DNA of 64,000 nucleotides, taken from Candidatus Uhrbacteria bacterium. Its GTDB lineage: Bacteria > Patescibacteriota > Patescibacteriia > SG8-24. A program made the position numbers and the translations under genes. Each line of letters starts with the position of its first letter. Position 1 is the stretch's first letter. The notes beneath the pieces are model-generated. The model worked only from the letters and a program-made list of their open reading frames with translations. It had not been told where the DNA came from and searched no databases. Below, piece after piece: positions 8,930-58,500 of this stretch. The stretch lies in assembly GCA_016929435.1 (NCBI GenBank), contig JAFGIV010000013.1, positions 15,822-79,821 of the forward strand, written 5' to 3'.

Positions 8930-9858
8930 TGGGTAATAGGAAAATCGCCCCACCAAGTCGGGGTGATTTTTTAGACGGTTGAGCGGAAAATTGGCACGGT
9001 TTGGGGGAATAGGAAAATCATCCCGCCAAACTATGACAAACCCGGTCATCTGCCCGCACTGCGGGAGCGACGAATTCTGGGCCGTGAGGGGCCACGCGCT
9101 GAAGTGCTCAGCGTGCCGCGTCGAGCGCGTCGCGATACCCGCAAGGCCCGTCACGGGCTTCGCCCTGACGCGGCGCGGCTGGCTGTCGGCGATCGACTGC
9201 CTGCTCCGCGACGGAACCGGCACGGCAATGGCGCTGGAGCTTGGGATGGCGGAGCGGACGGCGTACAAGGTCATCGCCGCGCTCCAGCGCGCGATGTGCG
9301 GGGACGCGCCCGTGCGGCTGCGCGGCGCGCGCGAGGCGGACGCCACGTACGTCGGCGGCGATTGGGCGAACAAGCGCGTACACATTCGCGCCAAGGGCAC
9401 CAAGAGGGGCCGGGGCACAAGCAAACGGTGCGTGTTCGGGGTCGTGCAGCGACGTGGGCCGGTCATCGTCTGGGCGGTGCCGGGCGAGCGCCGCGAGGTA
9501 GTCGGGCCCCTGATTGCGGCGGCGGTCGAGCCGGGTGCGACCGTGTGCACCGACGAGTGCGGGGCGTACGGGCACCTCGCCGAGCTCGGCTTCGGGCACG
9601 AGACGGTCAACCACGGCGCGGGCGAGTACGCACGCGGCGACGTCCACACGCAGACGCTCGACGGATACTGGGGCCGGCTCAAGAATTTCCTCGCCGCAAA
9701 GGGCGGCGTCCAGCCGCAGCACCTCATGAGGTTCGTCGGCGAGCACTCGTGGCGCTACAACAACAGGGGCCTGTCCCGGAAGGAACAGGCCCTGAAGCTG
9801 TACGGGCTATTGGTGCAAAAGTGAAAAATTGGTGGGATTTGTTTCCTATTACCCAAAA
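8930..9858 (+). mobile_element. IS1595-family insertion sequence (about 0.93 kb) with about 13-bp terminal inverted repeats
   Basis: Left end GGGTAATAGGAAA (8932-8944) and right end TTTCCTATTACCC (9842-9854) are inverted repeats. A single transposase ORF lies inside. The interior is visibly much more GC-rich than the flanks. A second near-copy of the left IR (ggaataggaaaatc, about 9007-9020) makes the exact left boundary ambiguous. Confidence 0.6.
9033..9824 (+). CDS. IS1595-family (ISXO2-like DDE) transposase with N-terminal zinc ribbon
   Basis: N-terminal CPHCGS...CSAC zinc ribbon followed by a DDE region (ADATYVGGD..., VCTDECGAYGHL, HETVNHG, WRYNNR), typical of DDE_Tnp_IS1595. The six-frame ORF starts at 8979 (TTG); ATG at 9033 preferred. 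Confidence 0.75.
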   Translation: MTNPVICPHCGSDEFWAVRGHALKCSACRVERVAIPARPVTGFALTRRGWLSAIDCLLRDGTGTAMALELGMAERTAYKVIAALQRAMCGDAPVRLRGAREADATYVGGDWANKRVHIRAKGTKRGRGTSKRCVFGVVQRRGPVIVWAVPGERREVVGPLIAAAVEPGATVCTDECGAYGHLAELGFGHETVNHGAGEYARGDVHTQTLDGYWGRLKNFLAAKGGVQPQHLMRFVGEHSWRYNNRGLSRKEQALKLYGLLVQK

Positions 9859-9859
9859 T

Positions 9860-9886
9860 TTAAGCTGGGGACTGTCCCCAGCTTAA
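9860..9886. repeat. REP-like palindrome copy (ttaagctggggactgtccccagcttaa)
   Basis: Perfect 27-bp palindrome. Member of the GGGGAC-N-GTCCCC family seen at eight other sites; abuts the IS right end. Confidence 0.7.
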
Positions 9887-24221: not shown

Positions 24222-25322
24222 TCAGGCCAGACTGTCAACAACAAGGTCATAACTGTCCCCTTGGCGCCGGACATGCCCGTTCAGCTCAAGTTCGGTTAGG
24301 GCAGCCATCGTTTCGGAAGGTTGCCGCCCGGTCTTCTCTATGATCAGGTCAACGGGAAACGGCTCCTTGGCCAGGAATTCCATGATCGTTTCCGCAACGG
24401 GAGAAAGTTTTCCCGGCCGTTTCCGTCCGCATTCGGGGGTGATTCCGTAGTGTCCCACTATGGCCTGGGCGGATATGGCCGGCAGGGCCCCTTCGGCCAG
24501 CAGGCGGTTGGTTCCGGCGGACAGGCTTTGGCTGATGGGTCCGGGGACGGCCCAGACGTCGCGGTTGGATTCCAGGGCGCATTCGGCGGTGATCAGGGCC
24601 CCGGATTTTTCGGCTGCCTCCACGACCACCGTGCCGACGGTCATCCCGGCGATGATCCGGTTGCGGCGTGGGAAACGGAAGCGGTCCGGGCGGGTCAGGG
24701 GAGGGAATTCGGAAACCAGGACTCCGCCGCTTTCGGCAATACTTTCCGCTAGGGCCGCATTTTCCTTCGGACCGACGGTTTGGGCGTCAACCCCGCCGGC
24801 CAGGACAGCCACGGTTTTTCCGTTGGCCCGGAGGGTCGTGGCGTGGGCCTCGGCATCCACCCCCATCGCCAACCCGCTGACTATCGGGACGCCGGCTTGG
24901 GACAGCGGGCCGCAGAGCATGCGGACCGCCGTTTCCCCGTAGCGGGTCATGCTTCGCGTTCCGACGATCGCCAGGGCCGGGCTGTCCGACAGGATTCCCG
25001 CATTTCCCCGGACGAACAGGATGAACGGCGGGTCACTGATCTGTTTCAGGAGTTCCGGATAGCGGGGGTCGCCATGGGTAATGGTCTGCACTCCCGTTTT
25101 TTTCAGCAACTCGATCTCGTCTTTCGGGTCGGTGACCCTTCTCCGTTCGATGAATTTAGCCGTGGACTTTTCCCCGGCCCCGGCCTTGGTCAGGGCATCA
25201 GTCCCGGATTTCCAGATTCTTTCGGCACTACCCAACTTGGACAGCAGCTTTCTGACCGTGTTGGGGCCGTATGCATCGGTTCGGGCCAGGGCAATAAGGT
25301 AGGGAAGGTCTTGGTCTGTCAT
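24222..25322 (-). CDS. dprA: DNA processing protein DprA/Smf
   Basis: Rossmann-like DprA core (ALAIVGTRSMTRYGE...GVDAEAH...) plus C-terminal winged-helix region. Confidence 0.85.
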   Translation of the reverse strand: MTDQDLPYLIALARTDAYGPNTVRKLLSKLGSAERIWKSGTDALTKAGAGEKSTAKFIERRRVTDPKDEIELLKKTGVQTITHGDPRYPELLKQISDPPFILFVRGNAGILSDSPALAIVGTRSMTRYGETAVRMLCGPLSQAGVPIVSGLAMGVDAEAHATTLRANGKTVAVLAGGVDAQTVGPKENAALAESIAESGGVLVSEFPPLTRPDRFRFPRRNRIIAGMTVGTVVVEAAEKSGALITAECALESNRDVWAVPGPISQSLSAGTNRLLAEGALPAISAQAIVGHYGITPECGRKRPGKLSPVAETIMEFLAKEPFPVDLIIEKTGRQPSETMAALTELELNGHVRRQGDSYDLVVDSLA

Positions 25323-25470
25323 GTCCGTTCGGTTAATCGGCGGAGACCTTAGGTCAGATTCAGGGAGCTGTCAAATCGAGTTTTTTGCTTATTTTAAGCA
25401 ATCTGACCGGATGGGTATGTCGGCAACCGGTGTGGATTGGTTGGGGGTTGGGGATAATTTTTTAAGGCAG

Positions 25471-25499
25471 GGGACAGTCCCCAGCTTAAATTTTTAAGC
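25471..25499. repeat. REP-like palindrome copy
   Basis: ttaaggcaggggacagtccccagcttaaa. Confidence 0.65.
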
Positions 25500-25559
25500 T
25501 TCTTCCCTATTTTTGCCCTATTCCCGTTTCAACCCGGATTTCGGGCCGTAAAAAAACAA

Positions 25560-25578
25560 GCCGGGGACTGTCCCCGGC
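25560..25578. repeat. REP-like palindrome copy (short form gccggggactgtccccggc)
   Basis: Perfect 19-bp palindrome with the same GGGGACTGTCCCC core; forms a doublet with the 25471 copy. Confidence 0.55.
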
Positions 25579-25581
25579 CCG

Positions 25582-26163
25582 TCAGTTAAATTTTCCCATC
25601 GCCGATTCCGGGCCGTCGGCCAGTAGCGTCCTCACCGCTTCGGCGGCCCGTTCGGCGGCCGCCTTCAGTTCGGCCAACTCTTCGGCGGACGGCCGACCGA
25701 GGACAAAATCCGCAGCCTCGGACCGTTTGGACGTTTCCGTCCCGATCCCGATCCTCAACCGGGGGAAATCCCGGGTCCCCAGCCGTTCGATGATCGATTT
25801 CAGTCCGTTGTGCCCGCCGGCCGAACCGGACAGACGCAGCCGCAGCCGCCCCAGGGGGATATCCTTCTCGTCAGCGATCACCAGGATGCGGTCCGGATTG
25901 ATCTTGTGGAAGGAGGCGATGGCCGCCACTGCCTGCCCGGACAGGTTCATGAAAGTTTGGGGAAAGGCCAGCATGACCTTCCGTCCGGCCAGTCGGCCTT
26001 TGGCGGTCAGGGCCTTGAACTTTCGGTTCATTGCCAGGGATCCGAAACCGTCGCCGTGCCTCCTTAGGATGGCCTCAATGGCCATGGCGCCGGCGTTGTG
26101 CCGGGTCTGGGCGTATTCCGGTCCGGGATTGCCCAAACCGACGATCAGCCAATCCATGGCCGA
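25582..26163 (-). CDS. pth: Peptidyl-tRNA hydrolase
   Basis: MDWLIVGLGNPGPEY..., canonical Pth N-terminus. The six-frame ORF extends to 26220; the Met at 26163 is preferred. Confidence 0.85.
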   Translation of the reverse strand, partial: SAMDWLIVGLGNPGPEYAQTRHNAGAMAIEAILRRHGDGFGSLAMNRKFKALTAKGRLAGRKVMLAFPQTFMNLSGQAVAAIASFHKINPDRILVIADEKDIPLGRLRLRLSGSAGGHNGLKSIIERLGTRDFPRLRIGIGTETSKRSEAADFVLGRPSAEELAELKAAAERAAEAVRTLLADGPESAMGKFN

Positions 26164-26167
26164 TCCG

Positions 26168-27550
26168 CTACCGCTTGATTTCCCGGACAGCCAGCCGGAT
26201 AGGAGTGCCCTCAAAGCCATACTCGTCGCGTATCCGGTTTTCCACGAACCGGATGTAATTGGGGTGAATCGTCTCCTTTTTCTTTACGGTCATGGTGATC
26301 TCCGGCGGTTCGGTGCCGGTCTGCTTGAGGCCATAGACCTTCGGGCGGGCCATGCCTTTCTTGAATGCGGTGTGGTGGATCCGCTGCATCCTTTCGAAGA
26401 AGGCATCCAGGTCCGGCTGCCCTATCACCCGTCGGCGCTGCTCCAGGACCTTCAGGGCCATGGGGATGACCTTGTTGACCCCGCGGCCGGTCTTGGCCGA
26501 GACGAACAGGAGGGGGGACCAGGCGCAGAAGGGCATGGAAACGGCGAGGTGTTGGCGGAACTCCTCGGCATCACCGATCCTTTTTTCCTCCGCAATGTCC
26601 CACTTGTTGGCGACTACGACGATGCCGACCCGGCTGTCCTCTATCAGGCCGGTCAGCCGTTTCTCTTGGGCGCTGATCCCCTCTGCGGCATCGACCATCA
26701 GCAGGGCGACGTCGGCCTGGCGCATCTCGTTGAAGCTCATTCCGACCCCGGTATGCTCGATTCCCGGTTCCACCTTGGCCTGCTTGCGGATCCCGACCGT
26801 ATCGAATATCCGGACGTTTTTTCGCTCGCCGCTTTCCGGGTCGTCGAAGGCGATCATGGTGTCCTGCGGTTCCTTGGTGGTGTGGGCGATCTCGCTGACG
26901 ATCACCCGTTCCTCCCCGGCCAGGGCGTTCAGGAGGGAGGACTTGCCCACGTTCGGCTTCCCGATCAGGACCATCTTCAGGTCCGGTTCGGGAATCGGCA
27001 CCGAATCCAGCTTCCTTTCCCTGATTTTCTCGATCAGGACATCGAGCATGTCGCCGACTCCGGAGCCGTTGATGGCCGAGCAGGGCAATGGTTTTCCCAA
27101 CCCCAACCTCATCCAGTCCGGGGATTCCGCCCTGCGGCGGGAGTTGGGGCTGTCCGCCTTGTTGGTGACGAGCAGGATCGGTTTTTTGGACTGGAGCAGG
27201 TGCTTGGACAGGGCGCGGTCCTGGGGCATGATGCCGGCAGTGGCGTCGGTCAGCATTAGGATGATGTCGGCCTTGGCCATGGCCGATTCGGCCTGCCGCT
27301 TCAGGGCCTCTTCCGTGGCCCGGTCCGATGTCAGGTCCAGTCCGGCCGTATCGATGGTCGTGACCGTCACTCCCCGCCACTCGAAGCTGCCGTAGTTGAG
27401 GTCCCGGGTGGTCCCTTCCTTGCCGGAAGTTATCGCCTTGCGTCTTTCCAGCAGGCGGTTGAACATGGTGGATTTTCCGGTGTTCGGCCGGCCGACGATG
27501 GCGACGACCGGGGTCAGTTTCAGGCGTGTGTCCATAATGGTTTCTGTCAT
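26168..27550 (-). CDS. der: Ribosome-associated GTPase Der/EngA
   Basis: Two tandem GTPase domains (GRPNTGKST and GKPNVGKSS P-loops) plus C-terminal KH-like domain. Confidence 0.9.
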   Translation of the reverse strand: MTETIMDTRLKLTPVVAIVGRPNTGKSTMFNRLLERRKAITSGKEGTTRDLNYGSFEWRGVTVTTIDTAGLDLTSDRATEEALKRQAESAMAKADIILMLTDATAGIMPQDRALSKHLLQSKKPILLVTNKADSPNSRRRAESPDWMRLGLGKPLPCSAINGSGVGDMLDVLIEKIRERKLDSVPIPEPDLKMVLIGKPNVGKSSLLNALAGEERVIVSEIAHTTKEPQDTMIAFDDPESGERKNVRIFDTVGIRKQAKVEPGIEHTGVGMSFNEMRQADVALLMVDAAEGISAQEKRLTGLIEDSRVGIVVVANKWDIAEEKRIGDAEEFRQHLAVSMPFCAWSPLLFVSAKTGRGVNKVIPMALKVLEQRRRVIGQPDLDAFFERMQRIHHTAFKKGMARPKVYGLKQTGTEPPEITMTVKKKETIHPNYIRFVENRIRDEYGFEGTPIRLAVREIKR

Positions 27551-31239: not shown

Positions 31240-31330
31240 TCCCGCTTTCCGTGGGGGGATGGCATCTCATCCCCCCACGCCTTCACCAATTAACGCCAGG
31301 GGCGAAACGGCAAATAACCTACAGGGCAAT

Positions 31331-32419
31331 ATGGACAAGGCAGTGGAAATCCTTCGGGAAATAGTCCGAATCCCGTCTTTTGTCGGGAACGGACAGGACG
31401 AGTCGGCCATGGCCGATGCCGTCCGGGAAATGCTTCGGGATTTGGGTGGCCGGTGGAAGGTTACCGAACAGGCGGTGGAAGGAAGGCGGCGCAACGTTTT
31501 CGTGTCCAATTCCCCTGATCCCAAGCTGCTGTTTTTGGCCCACATGGACACCGTGCCGCCGAGCGCCGCCTGGTCCAGGGACCCCTTTGCCGCCGAAATA
31601 GAGGGAGGCCGCCTCTATGGCCTGGGGGCGGTGGACATGAAGGCCGGGTTGGCCGCGATAGTCGATGCCCTGACGGAAAGGAAGGATACCGCCGTGCCGA
31701 CGGCCGCCCTGTTCTATGTGGGCGAGGAGTACGATTTTTGCGGCATGAGGAGGTTCATCGCCGAAAGTCGGCTGGCTCCGGAAACCGTCATCGTTCCCGA
31801 ACCGACTGACCTGAAGGTCTATCAGGGATGTCGGGCCGTGATCGGGGGCGTCATGACGGTAATCGGCAGGACCGGGCACTCGGCCATGAGCCGGGGGACG
31901 GTCAATGCCATTACGGCCGGGTTCCGGGCCCTGTCCGCCCTGGAACGACGCTTGGCCGAAGAGAGGGACGACCGTCTCGGGACATCCAGCCTTAACGTCG
32001 CCGGTTCCGCCGGCGGTGTCCGCCAGGACGGCCGGATCGCGATCGTGGAAAACATGGTCCCTGACTTTGCCCGGTTCAACTTTTCCGTCCGGGCCTCGAC
32101 CCCTTCGGCGGCGGATCTGTCTCTCATAACGAAGGTGGTGGGGCGGGAACTGGAGGGTTGCGGGGCAAAACTGGAGTCTTGCGATTGCCTGGGGACCGGT
32201 GTGATGAAATCCACCGGGAGGTTTGCGGGCTTTCCGGAATTCGAACGGGGGGACGAGTCGGCCTTCGGCTATACCGATTCGGAAATGCTGGTGTCGGCCT
32301 TCGGCGGCAACCCGGTCGTCTGCGGACCCGGACCGATGGGCATGGCCCACTGTCCGGACGAGTATGTTGACCTGGACGAATTCGGAAGGATGACGGATGA
32401 GCTGAGGAAAATGCTGTAA
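31331..32419 (+). CDS. M20 family metallopeptidase (ArgE/DapE-like deacylase)
   Basis: HMDTVP metal-binding motif, GAVDMKAG, and a dimerisation-domain insert. The ORF starts at 31259; MDKAVEIL (31331) is preferred. Confidence 0.7.
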   Translation: MDKAVEILREIVRIPSFVGNGQDESAMADAVREMLRDLGGRWKVTEQAVEGRRRNVFVSNSPDPKLLFLAHMDTVPPSAAWSRDPFAAEIEGGRLYGLGAVDMKAGLAAIVDALTERKDTAVPTAALFYVGEEYDFCGMRRFIAESRLAPETVIVPEPTDLKVYQGCRAVIGGVMTVIGRTGHSAMSRGTVNAITAGFRALSALERRLAEERDDRLGTSSLNVAGSAGGVRQDGRIAIVENMVPDFARFNFSVRASTPSAADLSLITKVVGRELEGCGAKLESCDCLGTGVMKSTGRFAGFPEFERGDESAFGYTDSEMLVSAFGGNPVVCGPGPMGMAHCPDEYVDLDEFGRMTDELRKML

Positions 32420-32450
32420 GGAAGGGTCCAAGACAGAGGAGGGGACTGTC

Positions 32451-32463
32451 CCCGGCAGGACCG
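32451..32463. repeat. REP-like core copy (ggggactgtcccc)
   Basis: Core palindrome only; forms a doublet with the 32512 copy. Confidence 0.45.
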
Positions 32464-32511
32464 GCTTTTTCGGACGGCACACGGGGTCCAGGACGGCGTT
32501 TTTAAGCCGGG

Positions 32512-32540
32512 GACTGTCCCTTGCCTTAAAAGTTTAAACT
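32512..32540. repeat. REP-like palindrome copy (imperfect)
   Basis: ttaagccggggactgtcccttgccttaaa; overlaps the stop region of the RAYT gene. Confidence 0.55.
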
Positions 32541-33145
32541 CCGTCGAATTTCATCAAATTTGATTCTTCGGAAAAGCTCGTCAGATGACCGATCTCCATC
32601 CTGTGCTCGGTCAATTCCCTATGGGCCCGATGCCGGCTCAACGGATCATCGCCGATTGATAGGTATTGGTCGTCGAAAGTGATGATTCTGTCGTGCGGAG
32701 AAGAGGTGTGCCCACGGTAGCTGGTCCATCGGTATTGTTCCGGCCGTTCGCACAGGCCACTCCTTACGGGATTCAACTCTATGTAAGAAGAACAGGTTGC
32801 GAAGTAGATTTCGTCAGAAATCAGCTTACTTTTGAACCTGTCCTGCCACAGGTGTCCGATCCCGCCGTACTTGTTCCTGTGCCAGATCGAGTATCCCTGT
32901 TCGATCATCTTCATGGCCAAGGAAAGACATCCGGCATTTAGAGAATCGACCAGGAGATGATAGTGATTCGGCATCCAGGCATAATAGAATATCCTGATGC
33001 CTGTTTTTCGTTTGGCCCTAAGGATCAGCTGGCGGAATTTTAGACAGTCTTCATCGTCGTGAAACACAGGTTTTTTGTTGTTGCCTCGGTTATAGACATG
33101 AAATATCCCCACATCACCGATGACACCCCTTGGTTTTCTGGGCAT
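32534..33145 (-). CDS. IS200/IS605-like HuH tyrosine transposase, REP-associated (RAYT-like)
   Basis: HuH motif MPNHYHLLV; C-terminal catalytic Tyr region QYRWTSY; about 200 aa. Flanked on both sides by REP-like palindromes. Confidence 0.7.
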   Translation of the reverse strand: MPRKPRGVIGDVGIFHVYNRGNNKKPVFHDDEDCLKFRQLILRAKRKTGIRIFYYAWMPNHYHLLVDSLNAGCLSLAMKMIEQGYSIWHRNKYGGIGHLWQDRFKSKLISDEIYFATCSSYIELNPVRSGLCERPEQYRWTSYRGHTSSPHDRIITFDDQYLSIGDDPLSRHRAHRELTEHRMEIGHLTSFSEESNLMKFDGV

Positions 33146-33276
33146 AGTGCGATGTTTTTACGCCTTGCCCAGAAATATTGCAAATTCAATTTTTTAGCTT
33201 TGGTTGGCAAAAAGGGTTATACGGTTGATGTTTTGATTGAGCATTTCTCGTATTTGATTGTTGATAACCTGAAAAG

Positions 33277-33306
33277 TTTAAGGCAAGGGACAGTCCCCAG
33301 CTTAAA
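33277..33306. repeat. REP-like palindrome copy
   Basis: tttaaggcaagggacagtccccagcttaaa. Confidence 0.6.
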
Positions 33307-33333
33307 AAATTTATAAACAGGTCGGCTTTTCGC

Positions 33334-33362
33334 TTGACACCAGAACCGATAGCTGGTATTTT
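33334..33362 (+). promoter_or_regulatory. Sigma70-type promoter (TTGACA-17-TATTTT) for the rpsL operon
   Basis: Sequence match; about 130 nt upstream of rpsL. Confidence 0.45.
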
Positions 33363-34414: not shown

Positions 34415-36508
34415 ATGTCAAGACAATTTTCCTTGGATCGAATCCGGAACATAGGCATCATCGCCCACATCGACGCCGGGAAGACCACCTTCAGCGAACG
34501 GGTCCTGTTCTATACCGGAAAGAAGCACAAGATCGGCGAGGTGCACGATGGGGGGGCCACCATGGACTGGATGGACCAGGAACAGGAGCGGGGCATCACC
34601 ATCACCTCCGCCGCCACCACCTGCCTTTGGAAGGACCACCAGATCAACCTGATCGACACCCCCGGACACATCGACTTTACGGTCGAGGTCAAGCGGTCCC
34701 TGCGCGTCCTGGACGGTGCGGTCGTCGTCTTTGACGGCGTGGCCGGAGTGGAGCCGCAGTCCGAGACCAACTGGCGCTATGCCGACGATTTTCGCGTTCC
34801 GCGGTTCTGTTTCATCAACAAGCTGGACCGGACAGGGGCGGATTTTTACGCTGACCTGAAGTCCATCCACACCCGACTTACCCCGAACGCCTATGCCATG
34901 CAGCTGCCGATCGGGACAGAGGCCAATTTCGTCGGGATCGTGGATCTCCTGACCCGTCGGGCCGAGATATACAGGGACGACATGGGTAAGGACATAGAGG
35001 AAACCGACTGTCCGGAGGACCTTAAGCCGAAGATGGAGGAATACCGAGCCAGGCTGATTGAGGCGATCGTCGAGAACGACGAGGCCATGATGGAGAAGTA
35101 CCTGGCCGGTGAGGAGCCTTCGCTCCAGGACCTGAAGCGGGCCCTACGCAAGGCGGTCATCAACCTGAACGTCATTCCGGTGTTCTGCGGCACTGCCCTG
35201 AAGAACAAGGGCATCCAGTTCGTCCTGGATGCGGTCGTCGATTACCTGCCGTCCCCGCTGGACGTGCCGGCTGTCAAGGGAATCGACCCGCGCGACGACG
35301 AGAAGGTCCTGGAGCGCGACCCGAGCGACGACGAGCCGTTCGCTGCCCTGGCCTTCAAGATATACGCAGACCCGTTCGTGGGTAAGCTCTGCTTCTTCCG
35401 CGTCTATTCCGGTGTCCTGAAGGCCGGTTCCTACATCGTCAACACCACCACCGGAAACAAGGAGCGGATCGGCCGCATCCTGCGGATGCACGCCAACTCC
35501 CGGGAGGAGATCGAGGAGGTCAGGACCGGGGACATCGCCGCGGCCGTTGGCCTGAAGAACACCTTCACCGGCGATTCCCTCTGCGAGGAGGACCACCAGA
35601 TCACCCTGGAGAAGATGACGTTCCCCGAGCCGGTCATCCACCTGGCCGTTGAGCCGAAGACCAAGGCCGACCAGGAGAAGCTGGCCGTGGCCCTGCAGAA
35701 GCTGGCCGAGGAGGATCCGACGTTTACGGTTCGTACCGACGAGGAAACCACCCAGACGATCATCGGCGGCATGGGGGAGCTGCACCTGGACGTAATCGTC
35801 GAGCGGCTGCGGCGGGAATTCAGCGTGGAATGCAATACCGGCAGCCCGCAGGTCGCCTACAGGGAGACCATCACCAGGTCGGCCGAGGCCGAAGGCAAGT
35901 ACGTCAAGCAATCCGGCGGCCGCGGCCAATATGGCCACTGTTGGATACGGGTCGAGCGGATTCCGGAGGAAGAGCGGGCGGAAAAGGGCAATTTTGCCTT
36001 CCTTGACGAGATCAAGGGAGGCGTCATCCCGCGGGAATACATCCCGGCCATCGGTAAGGGCATCAAGGAGGCCATGGCGACCGGCGTGGTCGCCGGCTAC
36101 CCGATGATCGGCATCCAGGCTGCCGTATATGACGGCACCTACCACGACGTCGATTCCTCGGAGGTGGCCTTCAAGATCGCAGGTTCGATGGGCTTCAAGG
36201 ACGCCTGCCGGAAGGCCGGACCGGTTCTCCTGGAGCCGATCATGAAGGTGGAGGTCATCGTTCCCGAGGATTTCATGGGAGACTGCATCGGCGACCTGTC
36301 ATCGAAGCGCGGCCAGATCAAGGAGATGCGCGACCGCACCAACGGCATCAAGGCGATCGAGGCCTCCGTTCCGCTGTCCGAGATGTTCGGATACGCCACC
36401 CAGTTGCGCTCAATGACCCAAGGCCGCGGTTCCTATACCATGGAATTCAATTCCTACGAACCGGTCCCGAAGAACGTTGAGGAGGCCATCAAGGCAGGGA
36501 AGAAATAG
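34415..36508 (+). CDS. fusA: Elongation factor G
   Basis: G1-G4 motifs ([18 protein letters not shown]); 697 aa. Confidence 0.95.
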
Positions 36509-36527
36509 TCCCCATCAAAAAAATCCA

Positions 36528-36578
36528 AGCATAAGATCGGCATCCCCGTCCGTCAGGCCATGGCCTGCGTGGGGGTGC
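36528..36578 (+). terminator. Compound hairpin downstream of fusA
   Basis: atcggcatcccc...caggccatggcctg...gggggtgccgat nested inverted repeats followed by a T-tract. Confidence 0.4.
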
Positions 36579-36628
36579 CGATTTTGGATCAAAAAATCAC
36601 CCTCAGACGGTTTTTAGGAACGAATCAT

Positions 36629-36657
36629 TTTAAGGCGGGGGACAGTCCCCAGCTTAA
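36629..36657. repeat. REP-like palindrome copy
   Basis: ttaaggcgggggacagtccccagcttaaa. Confidence 0.65.
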
Positions 36658-36701
36658 ATTCCGTTGGAAATTAGAGGTGACCGCTTAAATTTGGTTAGAT
36701 A

Positions 36702-36731
36702 CTTAAGGCAGGGGACTGTCCCCTGCCTTAA
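36702..36731. repeat. REP-like palindrome copy (perfect 29-bp palindrome)
   Basis: cttaaggcaggggactgtcccctgccttaaag; forms a doublet with the 36629 copy. Confidence 0.7.
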
Positions 36732-36907
36732 AGTTTGCGGACTCCCGACACACGGCGGAGACGGGACACCGCCCCGAACATGACGGCGGTTCCGGTTATC
36801 GGCATGCGAAAAGCCACGGACGGTTCCGGGAATGAAGGAATCTTTGGTGATCCGGACGGATCAAGAAAGGGGCATGAGCAGTTATTCGAGATCTGACCTG
36901 CTACCGA

Positions 36908-36930
36908 TAAGGCGGGGGATGTCCCCGGAT
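36908..36930. repeat. Degenerate REP-like copy
   Basis: ataaggcgggggatgtccccggatttg. Confidence 0.35.
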
Positions 36931-36959
36931 TTGAGCAAAACCGTCAATTAAGCTAAAAT
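36931..36959 (+). promoter_or_regulatory. Sigma70-type promoter (TTGAGC-17-TAAAAT) for tyrS
   Basis: Sequence match 8 nt upstream of the tyrS ATG region. Confidence 0.4.
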
Positions 36960-36967
36960 CCCATCAT

Positions 36968-38179
36968 ATGAAAGTCACGACCGACCCAATAAAGACAGAG
37001 GCCCTCCTGACCCGGCGGGTGGAGGAGGTGGTGGTAAGGGAATCCCTGGCCGCCAAGCTCGCTTCCGGCAGGCAGCTGACCGTGAAGATGGGTTTTGACC
37101 CGACTGCCCCGGACATCCATTTGGGGCACAGCATCGGTTTGAGGAAACTGCAGGAGTTCATGGACCTGGGCCACAGGGCGGTGATGATCATCGGGGACTA
37201 TACCACCCTGATCGGGGATCCGTCCGGCAAGTCCAAGACCCGCCCGATGCTGACGCCGGAGGAGATCGAGGCCAACGCCAAGACCTACCTGGAACAGGCC
37301 GGAAAGGTCCTGGATGTCGAAAGGCTGGAGATTCGGCGCAACAGCGAGTGGTTTTCCAGGATGGATTTCCTGGACATCCTGAAGCTGGCCGGAAAGTTCA
37401 CCGTCGCCCGGATGATCGAACGGGAGGATTTCCGCAGTCGGATGGCGTCCGGGACGGACATCGGCCTGCACGAGCTGCTTTACCCGATGATGCAGGCCTA
37501 CGATTCCGTGATGGTCCAGGCCGACGCGGAATTGGGGGGCACGGATCAGCGCTTCAACATCCTGGTCGGCCGGGACCTTCAGAGGAAAATGGGGATGCCG
37601 CAGCAGGATGCGGTGTTCCTGGGGCCGATCCTGGCGGGTACGGACGGTGTCCAGAAGATGTCGAAGTCTCTCGGCAACTACATCGGCGTGTCCGAAGCGC
37701 CGGAGGAGATGTACGGGAAGACGATGTCGATTCCGGACAGCGTCATGTGGGACTGGTTCCTGGCGGTGACCGACGTGCCGGAACAGGAGGTCAGGGAGAT
37801 TCGGGAGGCCTGTGACCGGGGGGAAATGAACCCGCGGGAGGCCAAGGCCCGCCTGGCCCGAGAAATCGTCCTGACCTACCACGGGGAAGCGATAGCCGCC
37901 CGGGCGGAAGAGCATTTCAACCGGACTGTCCGGAATCGGGAGTTGCCGGAGGAGATCGGGGAGTTCGTTGTTCCGGCCGGTAAACACGGCCTGATCGATC
38001 TGCTGTTCGGGTCCGGTTTGGCGCCGTCCAAGACCGAGGCCCGGAGGCTGATCCAGCAGGGCGGGATCAGGATCGACGGAAAGGCCGTCGGGGACATCGA
38101 TACGGTCGTCGAGATCGGCGGTAACCCCGTCATTATCCAGAAGGGCAAGCGGGGATACCGGCGGATAACGGCCGGTTAG
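36968..38179 (+). CDS. tyrS: Tyrosyl-tRNA synthetase with C-terminal S4 domain
   Basis: HIGH-type motif (PDIHLGH), KMSKS, class I Rossmann fold, C-terminal S4-like RNA-binding domain; 403 aa. Confidence 0.85.
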   Translation: MKVTTDPIKTEALLTRRVEEVVVRESLAAKLASGRQLTVKMGFDPTAPDIHLGHSIGLRKLQEFMDLGHRAVMIIGDYTTLIGDPSGKSKTRPMLTPEEIEANAKTYLEQAGKVLDVERLEIRRNSEWFSRMDFLDILKLAGKFTVARMIEREDFRSRMASGTDIGLHELLYPMMQAYDSVMVQADAELGGTDQRFNILVGRDLQRKMGMPQQDAVFLGPILAGTDGVQKMSKSLGNYIGVSEAPEEMYGKTMSIPDSVMWDWFLAVTDVPEQEVREIREACDRGEMNPREAKARLAREIVLTYHGEAIAARAEEHFNRTVRNRELPEEIGEFVVPAGKHGLIDLLFGSGLAPSKTEARRLIQQGGIRIDGKAVGDIDTVVEIGGNPVIIQKGKRGYRRITAG

Positions 38180-49567: not shown

Positions 49568-52500
49568 ATGGTCAGACAAGCCCTTTCCGCAAGAAAAACG
49601 CTGGCCGCCATCCTGGCATTGGGTTTGGGGGCGGTTTTGGCCGTTCCCGCCCTGGCCCAAGTCGATGTCGGCCTGGAATCGGCGGCCGCCATTGGCCTTA
49701 CCACCACTGACATTCGAACGATCGTTTCCCAGGTAATCAACGTTTTCCTGGGTCTTTTGGGTATTGTGGCGGTTGCGCTGATAGTTTACGGCGGATACGT
49801 CTACATGATGGCCAAGGGGGACCAGAACGAGGTTCAGCGCGCCAAGAAGATATTGGTGAACGCCCTCATCGGGCTGATCATAATTTTGGCCTCATACGCC
49901 ATCGCCTCATTCGTGCTGCGGGCGATTTCCGGAGGCAGCGGCGGAGAGGTGGGGGAGGGGGATTGCCCTCCGGGGGCCACCTGCAGCTCCTCCTTCCCGT
50001 CCCCGGGCAACTCCCTCCTGCTGAACGGGGTCATTCCGAGCGGCAGCGGCCCGAACGGGATGGGTTGGACCAGGGATAGCCTGCCCAGGATCGTCTTTAA
50101 CCGCAAAATCGACGCAACCACCCTGGATGACAGCCGCATCAGGGTTACCCGCTGCAACAGCCGGATGGACGGGGAGACGATCGCCGATTTCAGGAACAGC
50201 GCCTGCAATACTGCGGTATCCGGGGAAGTCAGCCTGGTAAACGAGACCACTGCCGTGTTCCGACCGGTCGGACTGGAGAATGAGGGTCTTTTTGACGGTG
50301 ACTACTGGTATCGGCTGGAGCTTCGGGGGATCCCCCTGCCGATCAGGAGCCTGGACGGGAAGGACCTGGCATGCCTGACGGCCCTGCCGGGAGACGGGGA
50401 TTACGATTCCTACGTTCAGAACCTGCCGTCTAATTCCCGGGTCTGCATTAGGGCCATTGCCTACAACACCCTAATTGATACCGGACCGCCCACCGTAGCC
50501 ATCAGTTGGCCCAGGGACGGGCAGTCGATCTGTGCCGATACGACCGAGGCTTCGGCCGTGGCCAGGGACGATGTCCTGGTTTCGGGGATCCGGTTCTCTC
50601 TTTCCGATCCGGCCTCGCCGTCCGACCCGCTTTCCCTGGCCTTCCCGTCGAACCCCTTGGACATCCCCAATTCCGGGCAGGTGACCGGTCCGTTTACCGC
50701 CTCCGCCACGATTTTCGGCAGTCACCTCAACGTTGGACAGGAATACAGGTTTTCGGCCGTGGCTTCCGACCTCCGTTTCCCGAACCCCGAAGGGGAGACT
50801 GTTGGGGTTGATTTCAGCGTCAGGCCCCAGCACTGCTGCGACGGCCAGCTGAACGACGACGAGAGCGGGGTGGACTGTGGCCCTGATTCCGGCTGCGGGT
50901 CGTGCCCGGGGGACGGGTGCACGGAAAACGGCGACTGTTCGTCCGGTTTTTGCGAGGAAGGCGTCTGCGTTTCCCTGCCGCGAATAGTCTCCGTTGACCC
51001 GATTGATCCCAATACGCAAGTTTTTGGCGGCGGTCCGGGGACCCTGGTTACCCTGAACGGCGAGTACTTCGGCGGGGCGGTCGGGGTCGTGGAGTTCTAT
51101 GACGGTACGCATGCCCTGACCGCCGAACCGTGCCTTCCGGGAGCCTGGACCAACGGCCAGGTGACCGTTAGGGTTCCTGAGGGGGTGAAGGTGGGAGGGC
51201 GGTATTTCGTCCGACTGACCAGGTCCGACAGCCGACACACCAGCACGGAAGCCGGACAGGAGGATGCCTACGGCTGGCTGGGGTATTTTCAGGAGAACGG
51301 GAATAACACCCCGGGCATCTGCCTGATCAGGCCGGCCAGCGGCAGCGAGGGCGACGTTTTTGAGGTTGTCGGTGACGGTTTCGGTGACGGTTCGGTGGGT
51401 GACCTGACGGTTAGTTTCGGGATATCCAACCCTTTCACGGTGGTGCCGGATTCCCGGACAGCGTCTTCCCTGACGGCCAAGGTCCCGCGGGCCCCGGAGG
51501 GCACCTATCCGGTTCGGGTTTCCGGATCCGGATGGATGACCACAAACGACCCGAAGTTCGCCGTCCTTCTGCCCTCCGAAAGCATGCAGCCGAAGATCGA
51601 GGGGATTTCGCCGAACGCCGGCCCGGTCGGAAATTACGTTACGATCAGCGGTAAGGGGTTCGGCAGCCAGCGCGGGCGGGTGGTGTTCCTGTTCGGGGAC
51701 GGACTGAACGAGGAACGGGCCATTGGGGCGGATACGGTCTGCGAAGACAGCTGGAAGGACTCCTACGTTACGGTCAAGGTACCGAAACAGTACGAGTGCC
51801 AGGAAGGAAGCGCCTGTCCCCTGCAGTTGGGCACGCACCGGATCCGGGTGGAGACGGCCAAGGGGCTGAAGAGCAACACCGTTAACTTCACGGTCAACAC
51901 CGATCCCCTGACCCCGAACATCTGTTCCATCAAGCCGGATAACGGCCCGCCCGGCACGGTCGTGACGGTGGGCGGGGAAAACCTTGGATCCGGTCCGGCC
52001 GCCGCCGCTCCCCTGAACGCCGTCGGATACGAGTGCCAGGACCCGAACCAGACCGGATGCGACATCAACGGCGTCGCCATGTCCTCGGAGGTCTCCTCCT
52101 GGCAGGTGAAGGCCCTGAAGTCAATCGTTCCGGGCAACAGGCTTAGCGTTGCCACCTGGCCGGACAGCGGCGATGTCCATGTCTGGTCCTACAATGTCCG
52201 CAGCGGAAACGGCCTGCCGTTCCTGGTCCAGGACTGCAACGACGGCGGGGACCGGGCCTGCCCCGCGGGTTTCGTGTGCTGCCAATCCGGTATCTGCGAT
52301 GACGGTTCGTCCAGCCCGACCGGCCGTCCCTGCGACTTCAGCCGCACCAGCGAGTTCGCCTGGCGTTTGAGCACGGAGATGATGCCCGTACCCCCCCAGC
52401 TTCTGACCTGTCCGTCATGCGGGGCGGTCGCCTGTCCCCTGACCGACGGCCTGCAGAGCCCCTCCCCGTTTCCGGGGTCGCGGGATGCCTGCGTCAACGC

Positions 52501-55500
52501 CAACATTGAGGCGGTGATCAGCCAGCGGCTGGAGGTTCCGTCCGGTGTCTCCGCGGCGGTTTCCGTTCTGTCCTGCGGTTCCGGGGAATCGCCGGATTCC
52601 TGTGTCGATGTGACAGGTGAAATGTCCCTGACGGTTTCGGCGGTCGGGGCGGGAGGGGGAAGCGGCCTGGTCAGCATCCGGCCGTCCGGCGGGGATTTCC
52701 TCCTGCCGGATACCTGGTACAGGGTCACTCTCAAATCCGACGGGCTTAGGGAAAACCTGACCGGGAACCGTACGGCCTTTGACGGCGACAGGGACGGCCT
52801 GCCGGGCGGCGATTATGTTTGGGAGTTCCGGACCAAGGATTCCCCCTGTGCCCTTGCGTCGGTAAGCGTAACGCCGAGCGAATACAACATTGACCACTGG
52901 AAGGGACAGCCGTCCCCGGACGACAGCGGTTTCAGGGCCGGCCTTCAGGCCGCCAACTGCAACAGCATCACCTGTGATCCCCTGAGCTATTCCATCGGGT
53001 GGTCGGTATCCGATCCCATGACGATATCCAAGGTGACGACGGCCAAGGCCTGTCACCAGAAGGTAGAGGCCCTGAAGGAAACCCTAATCGGGGAATTGGT
53101 CGACCTTTCGGCCAATGTCCGGCCTGTAGGGGAAACCCTGAGCCGGACCGGGAAGGCGGGGATTACGGCCCGGTTCGCCGATCCGGAGGTAGCGGGATTT
53201 GAGCCTGATTGCGATGAGGCCTGCGTCAACGCCGCCATCGGCATGACGTTCAGCACGCCGATGGAACCGAATTCCGTAATCGCCGGCAATACCGTCCTTC
53301 TCAAGACCTGCCGAAACCAAAGCTGCAACGAGCCTTTCGAGACGGCCGGGGCGGTCGGTCTGGTCGGCATCGAAAGCTATGCTGGCACTGATTCCGACGG
53401 CTATGTCGGATTCAGCCTTGATACCGACTCTGACCTGGCGCCGAACACTTTCTACCTGGTGATGGTGAAGGGCGGAGGGAACGGCGTGATGAGCAAGAGC
53501 GGCAAGACCCTGGTCGGCACCAACCTTACCGATTCCTCCGGAACCCCCTGGTTTACCTGGCGTTTCCGGACCAAGGACAGCAACCTGCCCTGCCAGCCGA
53601 GTCGGGCGGAAATAGTACCAAGGAACGCCGAGTTCAGGTATGTCGGACAGAAACTGCCGCTTTTCGTCCGCACCTACGGTTCCCCCGATTCCTGCAGCGC
53701 CGAAGGGCAGGCCCTGAACGCCGGCGATTACGGCTGGAGTTGGGGAAAGACGGCCAATGGCGTAGTCAGCCGGTTCCTGACCTCTGGGTCGGCCACTGTC
53801 CTGGATACCAATCCGGCCGTCCCGATCGGGTGCTCCTCCAGTTGCCTTAAGGTCGGTTCCCAGACGGCCCGGCCCCAATGCGGCAACGGGAAGGTCGAAT
53901 TAGGGGAGGATTGTGACGGAGGCAGCGGCTGCTCCCCCACCTGCCTGAACACCGGTTCCCCGACCTGCGGCAACGGTGTCCTTGATCCTGGGGAGGATTG
54001 CGAGTCGGTCGGCGGGATATTCCCTCCCGGGTGCTCCGACTGCCTCAATGCCGGATCGGCCCAGGGGAACTCGACCTGCGGCGACGGGTACGTTGGGGAC
54101 GGCGAGGATTGCGACGGGACCAGCGGCTGTGACCCCGTGTCCTGCCTAAATTTGGGGACCTTGCCCAGGTGCGAGGCCGTTACCGCACCCAAACCGGGCG
54201 TTAACTGCATAAACTATTGCGGAAACGGGATTTTGGAATACGGGGAGGAGTGTGAGGCTGCAGGCGGCACCTTTCCCCCGGGTTGCGACAGGAAAACCTG
54301 CCTGTGGGCCGGGACACCCAAGTGTTCCGATCCTGAAGGCGCCAAATGCTGCGGCAACGGGATTACGGACAGCGGGGAGGATCCGGGTTGCGAGTTCGGG
54401 TTCGGCCAATCGGCCGAATGGTGCGACGACCGGTGCCTGAACCGCGGATCCTCATACCTTTACGATTCGCCCAGCTTCTGCGGAGACATGGTTTTGGGCA
54501 GCGGGGAGGAATTGGGGTGTGAGGTGGCCTCCACAGGCCAGCCCGGACCGGCCGATCCTTTCCAGGTGATACTCGGGGGCAAGCCCCTGGCCACGGCCAT
54601 TGACCCGGCCACCGGATCGGCGACCGACACGGTAACATCCCGGACCGGGGGGATTTCGGCATCCAACCAGGGTGAAGCCACCGTCAGCCTTACCTGCCGC
54701 TGCCGGGAGGAGGACGATCCGCACGGTTTCTGTGAGTCGGTGGGGGAAGGTTTGGGGTGCGACGACATCGGCTGCTGCTCGCCGGCTCCCGGCGTGGCCG
54801 GCTCTACGCCGGCGGACGGCTCCTCCAACATCTGCCGCAATGCCCTTGTCAGCGTTGTTTTCGATGCGGCCATCAGTCCAGACTCGGTCAACGGCAGCAG
54901 TTTCCGGGTCGTGCGGGACGCTGGTTTTGGCACGCCGGCCTGCCGGTTCTGCAGTAACGATCCGGACAGGGCCTGCCTGTCCGATGGGGATTGCGGTTCG
55001 GGCGGTACCTGCCAGGACGGGACGGTGGAGAACGGCGGGAAGATACTGGCCGCTGTCGGCACGGGGGAACCGTCCGAAGACGGCGGGTTATGGGATCGGT
55101 TCGTCCGGTTCGTCCGCCGGCTGTTTTTCCGGTCAGCGTCAGCCCAGACTGTACAGACCTTCTGTCGGGTTCCCGGCCAGGTCAGCCTGACCGGACAGGA
55201 CACCGTTACCTTTACCCCGTTCGGCGTAATGTCCGGAACGGTAGGCCACCACATCCTTTTGACCGGCGGCAGCGACGGAATTCGCTCGTCCATGGGCGTG
55301 CCCATGAAGGCGGACCGGAGGATATCGTTCGTCACCTCGGACAGCGTCTGCGAAATAGGATCGATCCGGATCGATCCGGAATCGGTCCTGATCCAGGGCA
55401 TTGAGGGGGAAAACTCCTCCTTTGTCCTGACGGCCCATGCCCAGGCGGCCGGCCAGCCGGTCGGGACGGAAATCGTTTCCACGCCGGCCTATCGGTTCGA

Positions 55501-58500
55501 CTGGAACTGGAACCTGCCGGTCGTCACCTCTCCGGTGGCGCTGACGGTATCCGACTTTTTTCCTGACGGCCAGGGCCACAGTCCGGTATCCGAAGTCAGG
55601 GCCAGGACAGGAGCGGGATTCCCGAAGGAGGGGAGGGAAACCGTAACGGTCCGGACCGACATATACGGTTCGGGGACATCGGTCACCAAAACCATGACTG
55701 CCTCTTCCGATGCGACGGTCATGCTCTGTGAGCACCCGTGGCCGGATTGGCATGTCTGCAGTTCGGCCAATGACGTCTATTATCCCTATCCGGGGCACGC
55801 CGTCGACTGTTCCAGGGCCGGCCAGCAGATGTGGTATCCGTTCATAGACGGAAGCACCCTAACCTCCTTCTATTACTGTCGTGACGGTGCCACGGCCGGC
55901 GATTCCGGACAGTTGCTGCCGGCATTGAGCGGCGTTAAGATCGGCAGTAACCGGGCCGACATCCTCCACGAATACCTGTTCACCTTTCCGGGTTCGGCGG
56001 GGGAAAACTGGGTTAGGGACGCCATCGGACTGCGGGTTTCCAAGAACATGGAGCATTTCGGCATTTCCGACTGGTATTCCCGGCAGGGTTTCGTCGGTTC
56101 CCCGCAGCCGGTAACGATGGACGGCTATGAGGGCCTGAAGGAGGGACGGAGCGTTTACGTAAATGCCGCCGCCAAGACCGCCGTTTCCCCGAACCTGTAC
56201 ACCAATGTGTATACCCTGTCCCACAGTGACGGGGCTTCCCCGGAGACGGTCGGCATTTTCAGCCAGATCCTCGGAAACATGGACATGAACTGGCGGGTCC
56301 TGACCGACAGCCGCTATTGCGTGATTGACGACAGGCAGGTCCTGGTTGACGGGCAACCGGTATATTGCGAGAAGGACCGGGACTGTCGGGTTACGGCCGG
56401 TGACGACGGCCGGGAATCGTTCCCATCCGAAAGGTCCGTTTGGACCTGTCAGGCCGACAGGAGCAAGGTCCGACGCGATGTCCTGCGCTGGTCAGACATC
56501 CATACCATCCGTCTGGCCCTGAACCGGGCCCGGTCGGTAGGCGGATACCCGTCCCTGGATTCCGGGACCTACCTGCGCGGCTGGACCACCAGTGCCTGGC
56601 CGTCCTGGAACGAGGTCTTGGCGAACCAGATCGGTTTGGGGTCGCTTCCGGCCGATCCGGCGGAGGGTTTCATGGACTGCGGAACCGGCGGTTCGGGGCA
56701 CGATTCAGTGACCTGCTGGGATCCGGCTGTCAGGACCTACCGGTGTCCGTCCGGATCGCAGACATATACGTATAGGGGTTTGGGCGGGCTGAACTATGTC
56801 CTGGAGGCGATGTTCGAGTATGCGGACGGAAACTGGGCCAGCGGCACTGCCTGTTTGGGCAAGGGCGAGCCTGCCTGCCGGGCAAACGACCGTTGCGAAT
56901 GGCTTTCCTCCGACGGCTCCCCTTCGGAATGCCAATACCGGGGCGGCGGTCGGATAAGGGTCAGGGGTATCGGTAACGTTGAAACCACGTGCTCATCCGG
57001 GGTTACCGTTGGCATCGGCTCGGTTTGCGGTGACGGCCTGGTCGGGGAAGGGGAGGAATGCGAGCCGGGAGTGTCGTCCCCGCGCCAGATTCCCTGCGCG
57101 GCGGATTCGCGGAGCGGTTTCCGCCATCAGGCCTGCAATGACCAGTGCCGGTGGCAGGACTCCAGCGGCTGCATTACCGGTTCCTGCGGCGACGGCATTG
57201 TCCAGACGGAAGCGGGCGAGGCCTGCGATGACGGGCCCCTGAACGGGCAATACGGCCGATGCGGCAATGACTGCACCTATTCTGCCTCCCGATGCGGCGA
57301 CGGCGTCCGTCAGGCCAACGAGGCCTGCGATTGTGCACCCGGCGGGTTGCCGAACGGCACCTATGCCCTGAACGGCGTCCTGGCATCGTCCGGACAGCGG
57401 TGCGGAAACTCCGGACACGCCGTTCCGGGGTGTGCCTGGGACTGTTCCGGTCCCGGACCGCGCTGCGGTGACCTGGTGGTGAACGGCAGCGAGCAGTGCG
57501 ACGGCGGGACGGAGGAATATCCCAGGCTGTGCATCGGAAAGAACAACGGCAACCCGAAACGGCCGGTCATGACCGGCAACACCTACAGTCCGGTTCCCGG
57601 AAACGCCTACACCGGGTGTCGGACAGATGCCGATTGCCCGAGTGACCAGGTTTGCGCCGCCCTATGCGATCCTGACAGGCCGGAGCGGGTCTGGCGCAGG
57701 AACTGCCAGAGCAACGACCCGTTCGATTGGTTCGATAACGATGACGGCAGGGCCTGCACCTGGACCGTTTGGCAGTGCGGCTCGGCAGGTTTCTGCGGCA
57801 ACGGGGTCTTGGAAACGGGGGAGGAATGCGATGACGGCAATGACGACAATATGGACTCCTGCATCATCGACCCGAACGGCACCGGAACCTTCGGGACGCC
57901 GGTGATGTGCCGGAAAGCCGCCTGCGGCGACGGCTACGTCAGCCCGTCCAACAACGAGGAGTGCGATGCCGGCAGCCAAAACGGCCAGTCCTGCATTGCG
58001 GAATACGGCAAGACCTGCTCGTTCTGTTCGACGGGATGCAAGTTGGCCTACGTTTCCGGCGGGTTCTGCGGGGACAGCGTCATCCAGAACCGTTCCTTTG
58101 TCCCTCCGGGGCCGGAGGAATGCGAAGGGAGCCTGGAGCTGGAGAACTGGGTCTGCGTCAGCGACCGCCCGGAACACCAGATGTTCGGAAAGATGACCGG
58201 TTTGGCCATATGTGACCACGAAAGGGGGTGTGTCCGGGGGTGTTCCGATTCCGGGTCGGTCCCGTGCCTGGAGACCGGGAACCCGCTTGCCGGATCGGAT
58301 TACGACGGGGAGGCCGGATGGGACAAGCCGAACGATGCCCTTTTGGCGGCCATCGGTTACGGTTATGACCTGGGACAGACGGTTTTGGCTGACGGGCCGT
58401 GCGATCCGGACTGGGATAACGACGGCGTGCCCAACGGTTCGGACTGCCGCCCGACGGTCAGTGAGGTGCATCCCGCATACCAGGTGGTGGCCTCGGACGG

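Follow-up and report, generated by a model that had tools for sequence, protein, structure and literature searches.

A Y1 HuH gene between inverted palindromes

The window analysed here, a 64-kb stretch of Candidatus Uhrbacteria contig JAFGIV010000013.1 (positions 15,822 to 79,821), carries on its minus strand a gene for a 203-aa Y1 HuH tyrosine nuclease/transposase (32534..33145), a short form of the protein without the C-terminal helix-turn-helix (HTH) tail, which lies between an M20 peptidase gene (31259-32419) and rpsL. On either side of the open reading frame (ORF) stands one arm of a 37-nt inverted repeat (32499-32535 and 33272-33308; 92% complementary), and each arm contains a palindrome of the form TTAAG..GGGGACWGTCCCC..CTTAA; the two arms delimit an 810-bp unit, 32499-33308. 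A preliminary description of this DNA had recognised the minus-strand ORF by its HuH motif and had read the locus as a tyrosine transposase associated with repetitive extragenic palindromes (REPs), a RAYT, bracketed by its own repeats. The ORF, its motif (MPNHYHLLV, residues 58-66) and the REP-like palindromes around it, which are also dispersed in intergenic DNA, are all borne out by our analysis.

The arm on the 5' side of the gene (33272..33308) holds palindrome 33278-33305, TTAAGGCAAGGGACAGTCCCCAGCTTAA, placed 132 nt upstream of the start codon and with its core, GGGACAGTCCCC, at 33287-33298. The arm on the 3' side (32499..32535) holds palindrome 32502-32529, TTAAGCCGGGGACTGTCCCTTGCCTTAA, with core GGGGACTGTCCC at 32509-32520. 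One repeat copy had been described as overlapping the stop codon (32534-32536); this is true of the extended arm, which overlaps it by 2 nt, whereas the palindrome itself ends 4 nt before it. A degenerate extra copy (32432..32460), the doublet partner of the copy at 32502, is located just past the M20 peptidase stop codon; its core GGGGACTGTCCCC is intact (GGGGACTGTCCC at 32441-32452) and its outer arms have decayed, leaving the 6 core pairs and scattered outer pairs only. The same locus is present in an independent Logan assembly (SRR13394437; L001), in which an ORF with a 100% identical product is surrounded by the same three palindromes, and it is thus not an assembly artefact. Directly outside the 5'-side palindrome, at 33334-33362, there is a good match to a sigma-70-like promoter (TTGACA, 17 nt, TATTTT with a TG extension) directed towards rpsL; the cassette sits just upstream of this probable rpsL promoter and does not disrupt it.

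The protein has the Y1 HuH fold and retains an intact HuH motif together with Y121. It matches Pfam Y1_Tnp (PF01797), the profile proposed earlier as a check, over residues 15-123 at 45.4 bits against a cut-off of 23, and no other Pfam domain was detected at E <= 1. NCBIfam yielded a single match, REP_Tyr_transpos (NF047646), at 63.8 bits, under its cut-off of 80. A single-sequence search of the PDB returned one match, 4ER8 (E. coli TnpA-REP; E 0.037), and a profile of 42 homologues raised this to 2.8e-11 (47 bits), ahead of ISDra2 TnpA (2XM3; 3.5e-5, 27 bits). The AlphaFold2 model (mean predicted local distance difference test score, pLDDT, 89.8; predicted template modelling score, pTM, 0.85) gives the same ranking in Foldseek against the PDB, with 4ER8 at the top (E 1.9e-8; target-normalised TM score 0.71) and the TnpA proteins of ISDra2 (2.2e-5), IS608 and IS200 next. 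By sequence, profile and fold the protein is thus nearer to E. coli TnpA-REP than to IS200/IS605 TnpA, in agreement with the preliminary description, which had taken it to be a REP-associated tyrosine transposase.

Seven residues are invariant across the 42 homologues (G21, D33, H63, G97, R103, Y121 and N125), and those conserved in at least 90% include N60, H61, I122, E123, P126, V127, Y138 and S142. The N-terminus, MPRKPR, is that of the homologues. Homologue conservation and the codons read from the sequence place the HuH motif, N60-H61-Y62-H63, at 32957..32968 (minus strand). Conservation and the alignment to 4ER8, in which YIELNP (121-126) corresponds to YIYINP, place the tyrosine motif at 32768..32785 (minus strand), and the predicted catalytic tyrosine is Y121. 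The C-terminal motif QYRWTSY, earlier taken for the tyrosine motif, is present at residues 137-143 and is not the catalytic one: it is a conserved tail motif, containing W-T-S-Y, downstream of the catalytic helix. The protein stops before the G..LG..F..RGRP tail present in longer homologues.

Copy number was assessed over about 74 kb of DNA, to which the counts given here apply: the window and 9.8 kb of extensions from two Logan contigs, 9.3 kb to the left, with a ribosomal protein operon, and 0.5 kb to the right. A profile search of all six-frame ORFs of the window found a single Y1 gene, and in the extensions there is neither a second one nor any further palindrome. The 90% identity cluster of the protein has a single member, from one contig; after it, the closest relative shares 61% identity. 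No tnpB is present at the locus, and there is no room for one between the M20 peptidase gene and rpsL. The unit also differs in composition from its surroundings, with a GC content of 0.46 against 0.595 for the window; the ORF alone stands at 0.485, and its GC content at third codon positions (GC3) is 0.60 against 0.74-0.84 in neighbouring genes.

Palindromes dispersed between genes

Eight palindrome sites were found in the window, all eight of them intergenic and distributed over five places: the 3' side of an IS1595-family transposase ORF, the pth/dprA gap, the M20 peptidase/Y1 gap, the Y1/rpsL gap and the fusA/tyrS gap. Beyond those at the Y1 locus, they comprise a perfect 27-nt palindrome at 9860..9886, 36 nt past the stop of the IS1595-family ORF; a doublet (25462..25489 and 25555..25583) between pth (25582-26220, minus strand) and dprA (24222-25322, minus strand), whose second member abuts the pth stop; and a doublet between fusA (34415-36508) and tyrS (36968-38179), formed by a copy at 36630..36657 and a perfect 29-nt palindrome at 36703..36731. 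The copies thus occur as singles and doublets, mostly just downstream of genes. With up to one mismatch the 12-mer core has 16 strand matches against 0.97 expected, a count reached in none of 100 shuffles, and the full palindrome pattern has 6 matches against 0.00 expected. The most frequent 12-, 14- and 16-mers of the window are all REP-derived, and the flanking 16-mer, with four occurrences, is the commonest of its length. Two degenerate core matches inside genes, at 9766 (GGGGCCTGTCCC, within the IS1595 transposase ORF) and at 23665 (within topA), were left out as chance matches.

Doublets occur at three of the five places, with members 70-93 nt apart. Alignment of the three doublet spacers is no better than that of shuffled sequence. 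What is repeated is therefore the single palindrome, and not a REPIN, in which a pair replicates as one unit. GTAG or GTGG next to the stem was found in none of the eight copies, whose feet are TTTAAG / CTTAAA. As DNA hairpins the perfect copies fold strongly (-13.9 kcal/mol, z = -5.65, at 9860; -14.3 kcal/mol, z = -5.03, at 36703), and the two flanking copies and the decayed copy fold weakly. The copy at 25555 (13 pairs, minus strand) is the only one of the eight followed by a T-run, and for this reason it alone looks like a terminator. Terminator-like sites are not enriched in the window (17 against 16.5 expected), and an Rfam scan of it returned four tRNAs and nothing at the palindromes. 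We also considered the central W base as a marker of orientation; between the window and the locus of the closest relative (L004) its sense with respect to the gene is reversed, and as a loop base it is uninformative.

Two of the places have features of their own. The IS1595-family ORF (8979-9824, plus strand) matches DDE_Tnp_IS1595 at 110 bits and includes a zinc-ribbon domain, and with a copy 36 nt past its end a second kind of mobile element adjoins a palindrome. In the gap at 36509-36967, which holds the 36630/36703 doublet, fusA is followed not by tuf but by the gene for tyrosyl-tRNA synthetase (36968-38179), so the usual str operon order is broken where the repeats sit.

Relatives of the protein and the class of the system

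Inspection of the flanks of nine relatives (38-61% identity to the window protein) revealed inverted repeats containing GGGG[AT]C in eight. Three (44-61% identity) have the same 13-nt core, GGGGACWGTCCCC, with outer arms that differ yet stay complementary. The closest, P0002 (61%; L004/L005, GC 0.39), has TTAAGGCAGGGGACWGTCCCCYGCCTTAA 132 nt upstream and 12 nt downstream of its gene; the upstream distance equals that in the window, and the remaining 5' flank aligns poorly by comparison. P0006 (44%; L017) has GGCGAAC-GGGGACAGTCCCC-GTTCGCC on both sides, and P0012 (44%; L018) has ATCCCCAAyTC-GGGGACWGTCCCC-G..TGGGGAT on both sides and one copy 1 kb off. No extra copies were seen for P0002, P0006 or P0009 (41%; L009), the last of which has an inverted repeat with GGGGACGGTTCT. 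P0017 (41%; L014) shares that repeat and has one copy nearby; the inverted repeat of P0004 (42%; L031) is AAAAAGGGGACGTCCACAATAAA, with four more in 2.3 kb, and that of P0018 (38%; L012) is AGGGGTCAAAGCCCTTTAA, with three nearby. More distant relatives have one GGGGAC half-site at each end, in inverted orientation. As in the window, the Y1 genes of relatives lie 6-15 GC points under their own loci (L006, L009, L014, L017, L018 and L031), for example 0.48 against 0.63 in L018 and 0.40 against 0.52 in L017; this clade-wide low GC suggests repeated horizontal acquisition.

Two of these loci merit description in their own right. The P0006 unit (L017, 4700-5800), whose 3' palindrome extends into the last codons of its ORF, apparently lies between two tRNA-like sequences, as judged by eye. 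The 2.3-kb Elusimicrobiota contig with P0004 (L031) has an unusually dense cluster, in which AAAAAGGGGACGTCCACAATAAA occurs four times, with a diverged copy in addition just upstream of the gene (239-620 and 1795).

The pairing of the palindromes is conserved beyond their sequence. Across 17 palindromes from six sources, with sites picked by their core only, pairing holds in 87.8% of cells, as compared with 70.1% for the shuffles, of which none of 500 reached the observed value; 8 of 13 pairs have changed on both sides, and shifted registers score much lower. The 6-bp apical stem is nearly invariant (in two window copies its base has A in place of G), and the outer 8 pairs vary in sequence and remain complementary. 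Protein and repeat travel together across hosts whose GC content ranges from 0.39 to 0.63, which argues against chance or a host-specific origin of the palindromes.

A scan with the full pattern, TTAAGN{3,4}GGGACWGTCCCN{3,4}CTTAA, gave one match each in GTDB representative genomes and JGI metagenomes, both on unrelated contigs. The former (L002, 7948-8000) is in an Elusimicrobia metagenome-assembled genome (CBDIQC010000001.1) and has two adjacent cores, TTAAGCTGGGGGACAGTCCCCCCGCTTAA then CAGGGGACAGTCCCCTTAAGCTG, at the extreme end of the sequence examined; the latter is at L003, 699-727 (Ga0196977_1032985). No Y1 gene was found in the flanks examined around either. Viral contigs yielded twelve relatives, some with flanking inverted repeats containing GGGGAC or GGGGTC; all are at most 39% identical, and with no close relative among them we rejected carriage by phage.

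The signature of class 2 is Y---NP, as opposed to the Y---Q and DH[VI]H of IS200 transposases (subclass 1.1) (PMC6006769), and the window protein, with Y121...N125-P126, stands on the class 2 side, nearer TnpA-REP than TnpA-IS200 by both profile and Foldseek. Table 1 of Quentin et al. (2018; PMC6006769) gives the combination NH[YF]H / W[EQ] / YIELNP for subclass 2.1 alone and equates this subclass with the Group 1 RAYTs of Bertels et al. (2017). According to Quentin, it probably corresponds also to the terminal inverted repeat-associated tyrosine transposases (TIRYTs) of Di Nocera et al. (2013), the motifs of membership being NHVH or NH[YF]H, W[EQ], and YIELNP or Y[IV]HLNP (PMC6006769). The window protein has NHYH at 60-63, WQ at 100-101 and YIELNP, and GGGGACAG, present in both flanks, fits the consensus of TIRYT flanking repeats, GGGGWSAS (PMC3733652). 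By these motifs and this repeat signature the protein fits Quentin subclass 2.1, that is, the Bertels Group 1 RAYT / Di Nocera TIRYT class. The C-terminal HTH-like domain (Bac_DnaA_C, HTH_23 or HTH_28) and the SS tail motif of subclass 2.1 are absent from it, which weakens the membership without excluding it, because subgroup 2.1.2 is described as heterogeneous in its C-terminal region (PMC6006769). Some homologues do bear the HTH domains typical of 2.1 (HTH_23, PF13384, and Bac_DnaA_C, PF08299), and many come from epsilon- and beta-proteobacteria.

The resemblance to TIRYTs and their TIRtrons extends to low copy number, a patchy spread suggestive of horizontal transfer, relatives in epsilon- and beta-proteobacteria, moderately abundant families of flanking repeats occurring as singles, dimers or clusters, and repeats of which some are self-complementary, such as those of S. 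maltophilia ORF 1152 (PMC3733652). The present system differs in the length of the protein (203 aa against a median of 238), in the lack of a C-terminal HTH or RGRP-type tail, in a tail motif with TS where TIRYTs have SS, in flanks that are each a full 28-nt palindrome with the apical 13 nt conserved across hosts, and in its host, a Patescibacteria (Uhrbacteria) genome. The literature yielded no description of this palindrome in bacteria, and TIRYTs only in Di Nocera et al. (2013) and Quentin et al. (2018).

Comparison with the REPtron of E. coli (4ER8; subclass 2.2, Bertels Group 2) highlights a shared arrangement. Its TnpA-REP is the best solved-structure match by fold and sequence, has the Y---NP motif and is encoded between inverted copies of a dispersed extragenic palindrome, and hairpin recognition and single-strand cleavage are presumed for both systems. 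The two proteins are only about 18% identical, however, and have DHLH / WE / YIHYNP in E. coli and NHYH / WQ / YIELNP here; E. coli REPs have a 5' GTAG foot and bulged stems and form bacterial interspersed mosaic elements (BIMEs) or REPINs, whereas the window palindromes have no such foot and are conserved at the apex of the hairpin. The canonical RAYT arrangement reported earlier therefore stands in part: at least two inverted cognate repeats flank the gene, but the GT[AG]G tetranucleotide at the 5' foot of canonical REPs (PMC6006769) is missing and the NCBIfam score falls under the cut-off. With the REPINs of P. fluorescens (Bertels and Rainey, 2011) the window shares dispersed short palindromes, a single-copy Y1 gene and frequent doublets, the difference being that the doublet spacers are unrelated here and the repeated unit is the single palindrome. 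The system is a further example of a kind already described, one that would work like a REPtron and that groups with the TIRtrons.

Proposed mobilisation of the palindromes and competing explanations

We propose, as the probable explanation of these data, that the locus is a module of the TIRtron/REPtron type, in which a single-copy class 2 Y1 gene lies between two inverted cognate palindromes and further copies of the palindrome occupy nearby intergenic DNA. By analogy with known enzymes, the protein would mobilise the palindromes; for such enzymes, hairpin recognition on single-stranded DNA, cleavage through a 5'-phosphotyrosyl intermediate and strand rejoining are established (PMC3479197; PMC6006769). 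The palindrome may be extruded as a hairpin where DNA is single-stranded, for instance on the lagging-strand template, as for TnpA-REP and the TnpA of IS608 and ISDra2. The enzyme, with a metal ion coordinated through H61 and H63, would recognise the invariant apical GGGGAC/GTCCCC stem-loop, cut beside the hairpin by way of a 5'-phosphotyrosyl linkage to Y121 and then rejoin the strands; excision and insertion of palindrome units in this way could seed new intergenic copies. Conservation here concerns the apex of the hairpin and not a tetranucleotide at its foot, and recognition probably differs in detail from that by the GTAG-guided E. coli enzyme. The low GC of the module suggests that it may have arrived by horizontal transfer as a REP-gene-REP cassette, and horizontal acquisition has been proposed in the literature for subclass 2.1/Group 1. 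The domesticated RAYT of the preliminary description does not agree with this: that the gene is poorer in GC than its host suggests that it was acquired horizontally and not domesticated long ago.

Several points weigh against this proposal. The variant GCAAGGGAC is common to the two flanking copies and does not occur in the dispersed ones, and the flanks may for this reason be the ends of a cassette and not the source of the dispersed copies. The relative P0005 (42%; L006) has neither a flanking repeat nor extra copies. The covariation is no proof of a hairpin, because a symmetric binding site on double-stranded DNA fits it equally well. We know of no subclass 2.1/TIRYT enzyme that has been characterised in vitro. 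Finally, for subclass 2.1 in general no REP-like sequences are reported (PMC6006769).

We also entertain, as a possibility that we ourselves find rather doubtful, a narrower idea of how the repeats arose: the recognition element of this sub-clade would be the apical 13-nt GGGGACWGTCCCC, composed of two TIRYT half-sites (GGGGWSAS) head to head, and the dispersed palindromes would be gene-less, minimal TIRtrons in which a left and a right end meet as they do at the circle junction of a Y1 element. If true, it would show REP-like repeats arising from the terminal repeats of a Y1 cassette, and it would also mean that a REP/RAYT-type system, having arrived horizontally, is active in spreading hairpins between the genes of a reduced Patescibacteria genome.

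Among the other explanations, the one that survives best, though we think it unlikely, takes the 810-bp unit (32499-33308) for an autonomous insertion sequence (IS) with terminal inverted repeats, a selfish and horizontally moving element rather than a domesticated single-copy RAYT, and the solo palindromes for miniature derivatives or footprints of it, such as ends fused after loss of the gene. The low GC and GC3 of the unit, with the same offset in relatives, agree with this, as does the recurrence of the palindrome-132 nt-gene-palindrome layout in a genome of GC 0.39, which is consistent with transfer of a cassette. The two flanks are more alike than either is to the dispersed copies, and the ends of distant relatives, being inverted GGGGAC half-sites, make the solo GGGGAC-W-GTCCCC look like two joined ends. 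Bertels moreover reports that, of the RAYT groups, Group 1 duplicates at the highest rate and is the most present on plasmids. Against this, each end in the window is already a whole palindrome and not a half-site, and Y1 enzymes use hairpins and single strands, not terminal inverted repeats as DDE transposases do. There is one copy in the roughly 74 kb, and the protein collection holds no second cluster member above 61% identity. Multi-copy insertion sequences are also expected to break metagenome assemblies, and this gene lies inside a 93.7-kb contig.

Less probable still, and in our judgement quite improbable, is that the palindromes are regulatory elements of the host (terminators, mRNA-stabilising hairpins or a symmetric protein-binding site), with the Y1 gene nearby incidentally or landed between two of them. 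This would account for the position of most copies just past the stops of the M20 peptidase, pth, fusA and IS1595 transposase genes, for the scoring of the copy at 25555 (minus strand) as an intrinsic terminator and for the strong folding of the perfect copies, about -14 kcal/mol as DNA; REPs are also reported to be active in termination and mRNA stability (PMC3733652). However, seven of the eight copies have no T-run, terminator-like sites are at their expected number, several copies fold weakly and no Rfam family was found at the palindrome sites. The 13-nt core is found beside the genes for relatives of this protein on four unrelated contigs, whose GC ranges from 0.39 to 0.63, and a core that follows the gene across hosts is not expected of a host-specific regulatory site. 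A secondary role of the palindromes in the host is compatible with a TIRtron/REPtron-type module.

That the protein is an ordinary TnpA of the IS200/IS605 family (IS608, ISDra2; subclass 1.1) is hardly credible: the Pfam family is named 'Transposase IS200 like', the HuH/Y1 fold and a presumed hairpin-guided single-strand chemistry are shared, and ISDra2, IS608 and IS200 TnpA are secondary fold matches, but 4ER8 outranks all of these by profile and fold, the motifs are Y---NP and NHYH, not Y---Q and DH[VI]H, the ends are inverted repeats in place of separate left and right subterminal hairpins, a tnpB would not fit at the locus, and the DNA read has one copy of the gene, without the many near-identical copies of such elements. 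An IS200 TnpA with IS ends and a TnpB partner was the outcome that the preliminary description had set against its own reading, and we found no Y---Q and no TnpB.

A TIRtron/REPtron-type module at this locus would extend REP/RAYT-type (TIRtron) systems to a bacterium of the candidate phyla radiation with a tightly packed genome. With a 203-aa enzyme and a 29-nt palindrome it offers a compact test case in which the biochemistry of subclass 2.1/TIRYT becomes directly approachable, and it bears on how the ends of Y1 cassettes give rise to REP families. For annotation, it accounts for the commonest repeat of the window and calls for caution, as hairpins such as those between fusA and tyrS are probably derived from a mobile element and not signals designed by the host.

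Elsewhere in the window, a giant ORF of 3250 aa (49568-59320, plus strand) matches Pfam T4SS_pilin and, faintly, Big_5 and TIG, and probably encodes a large surface- or pilus-associated protein.

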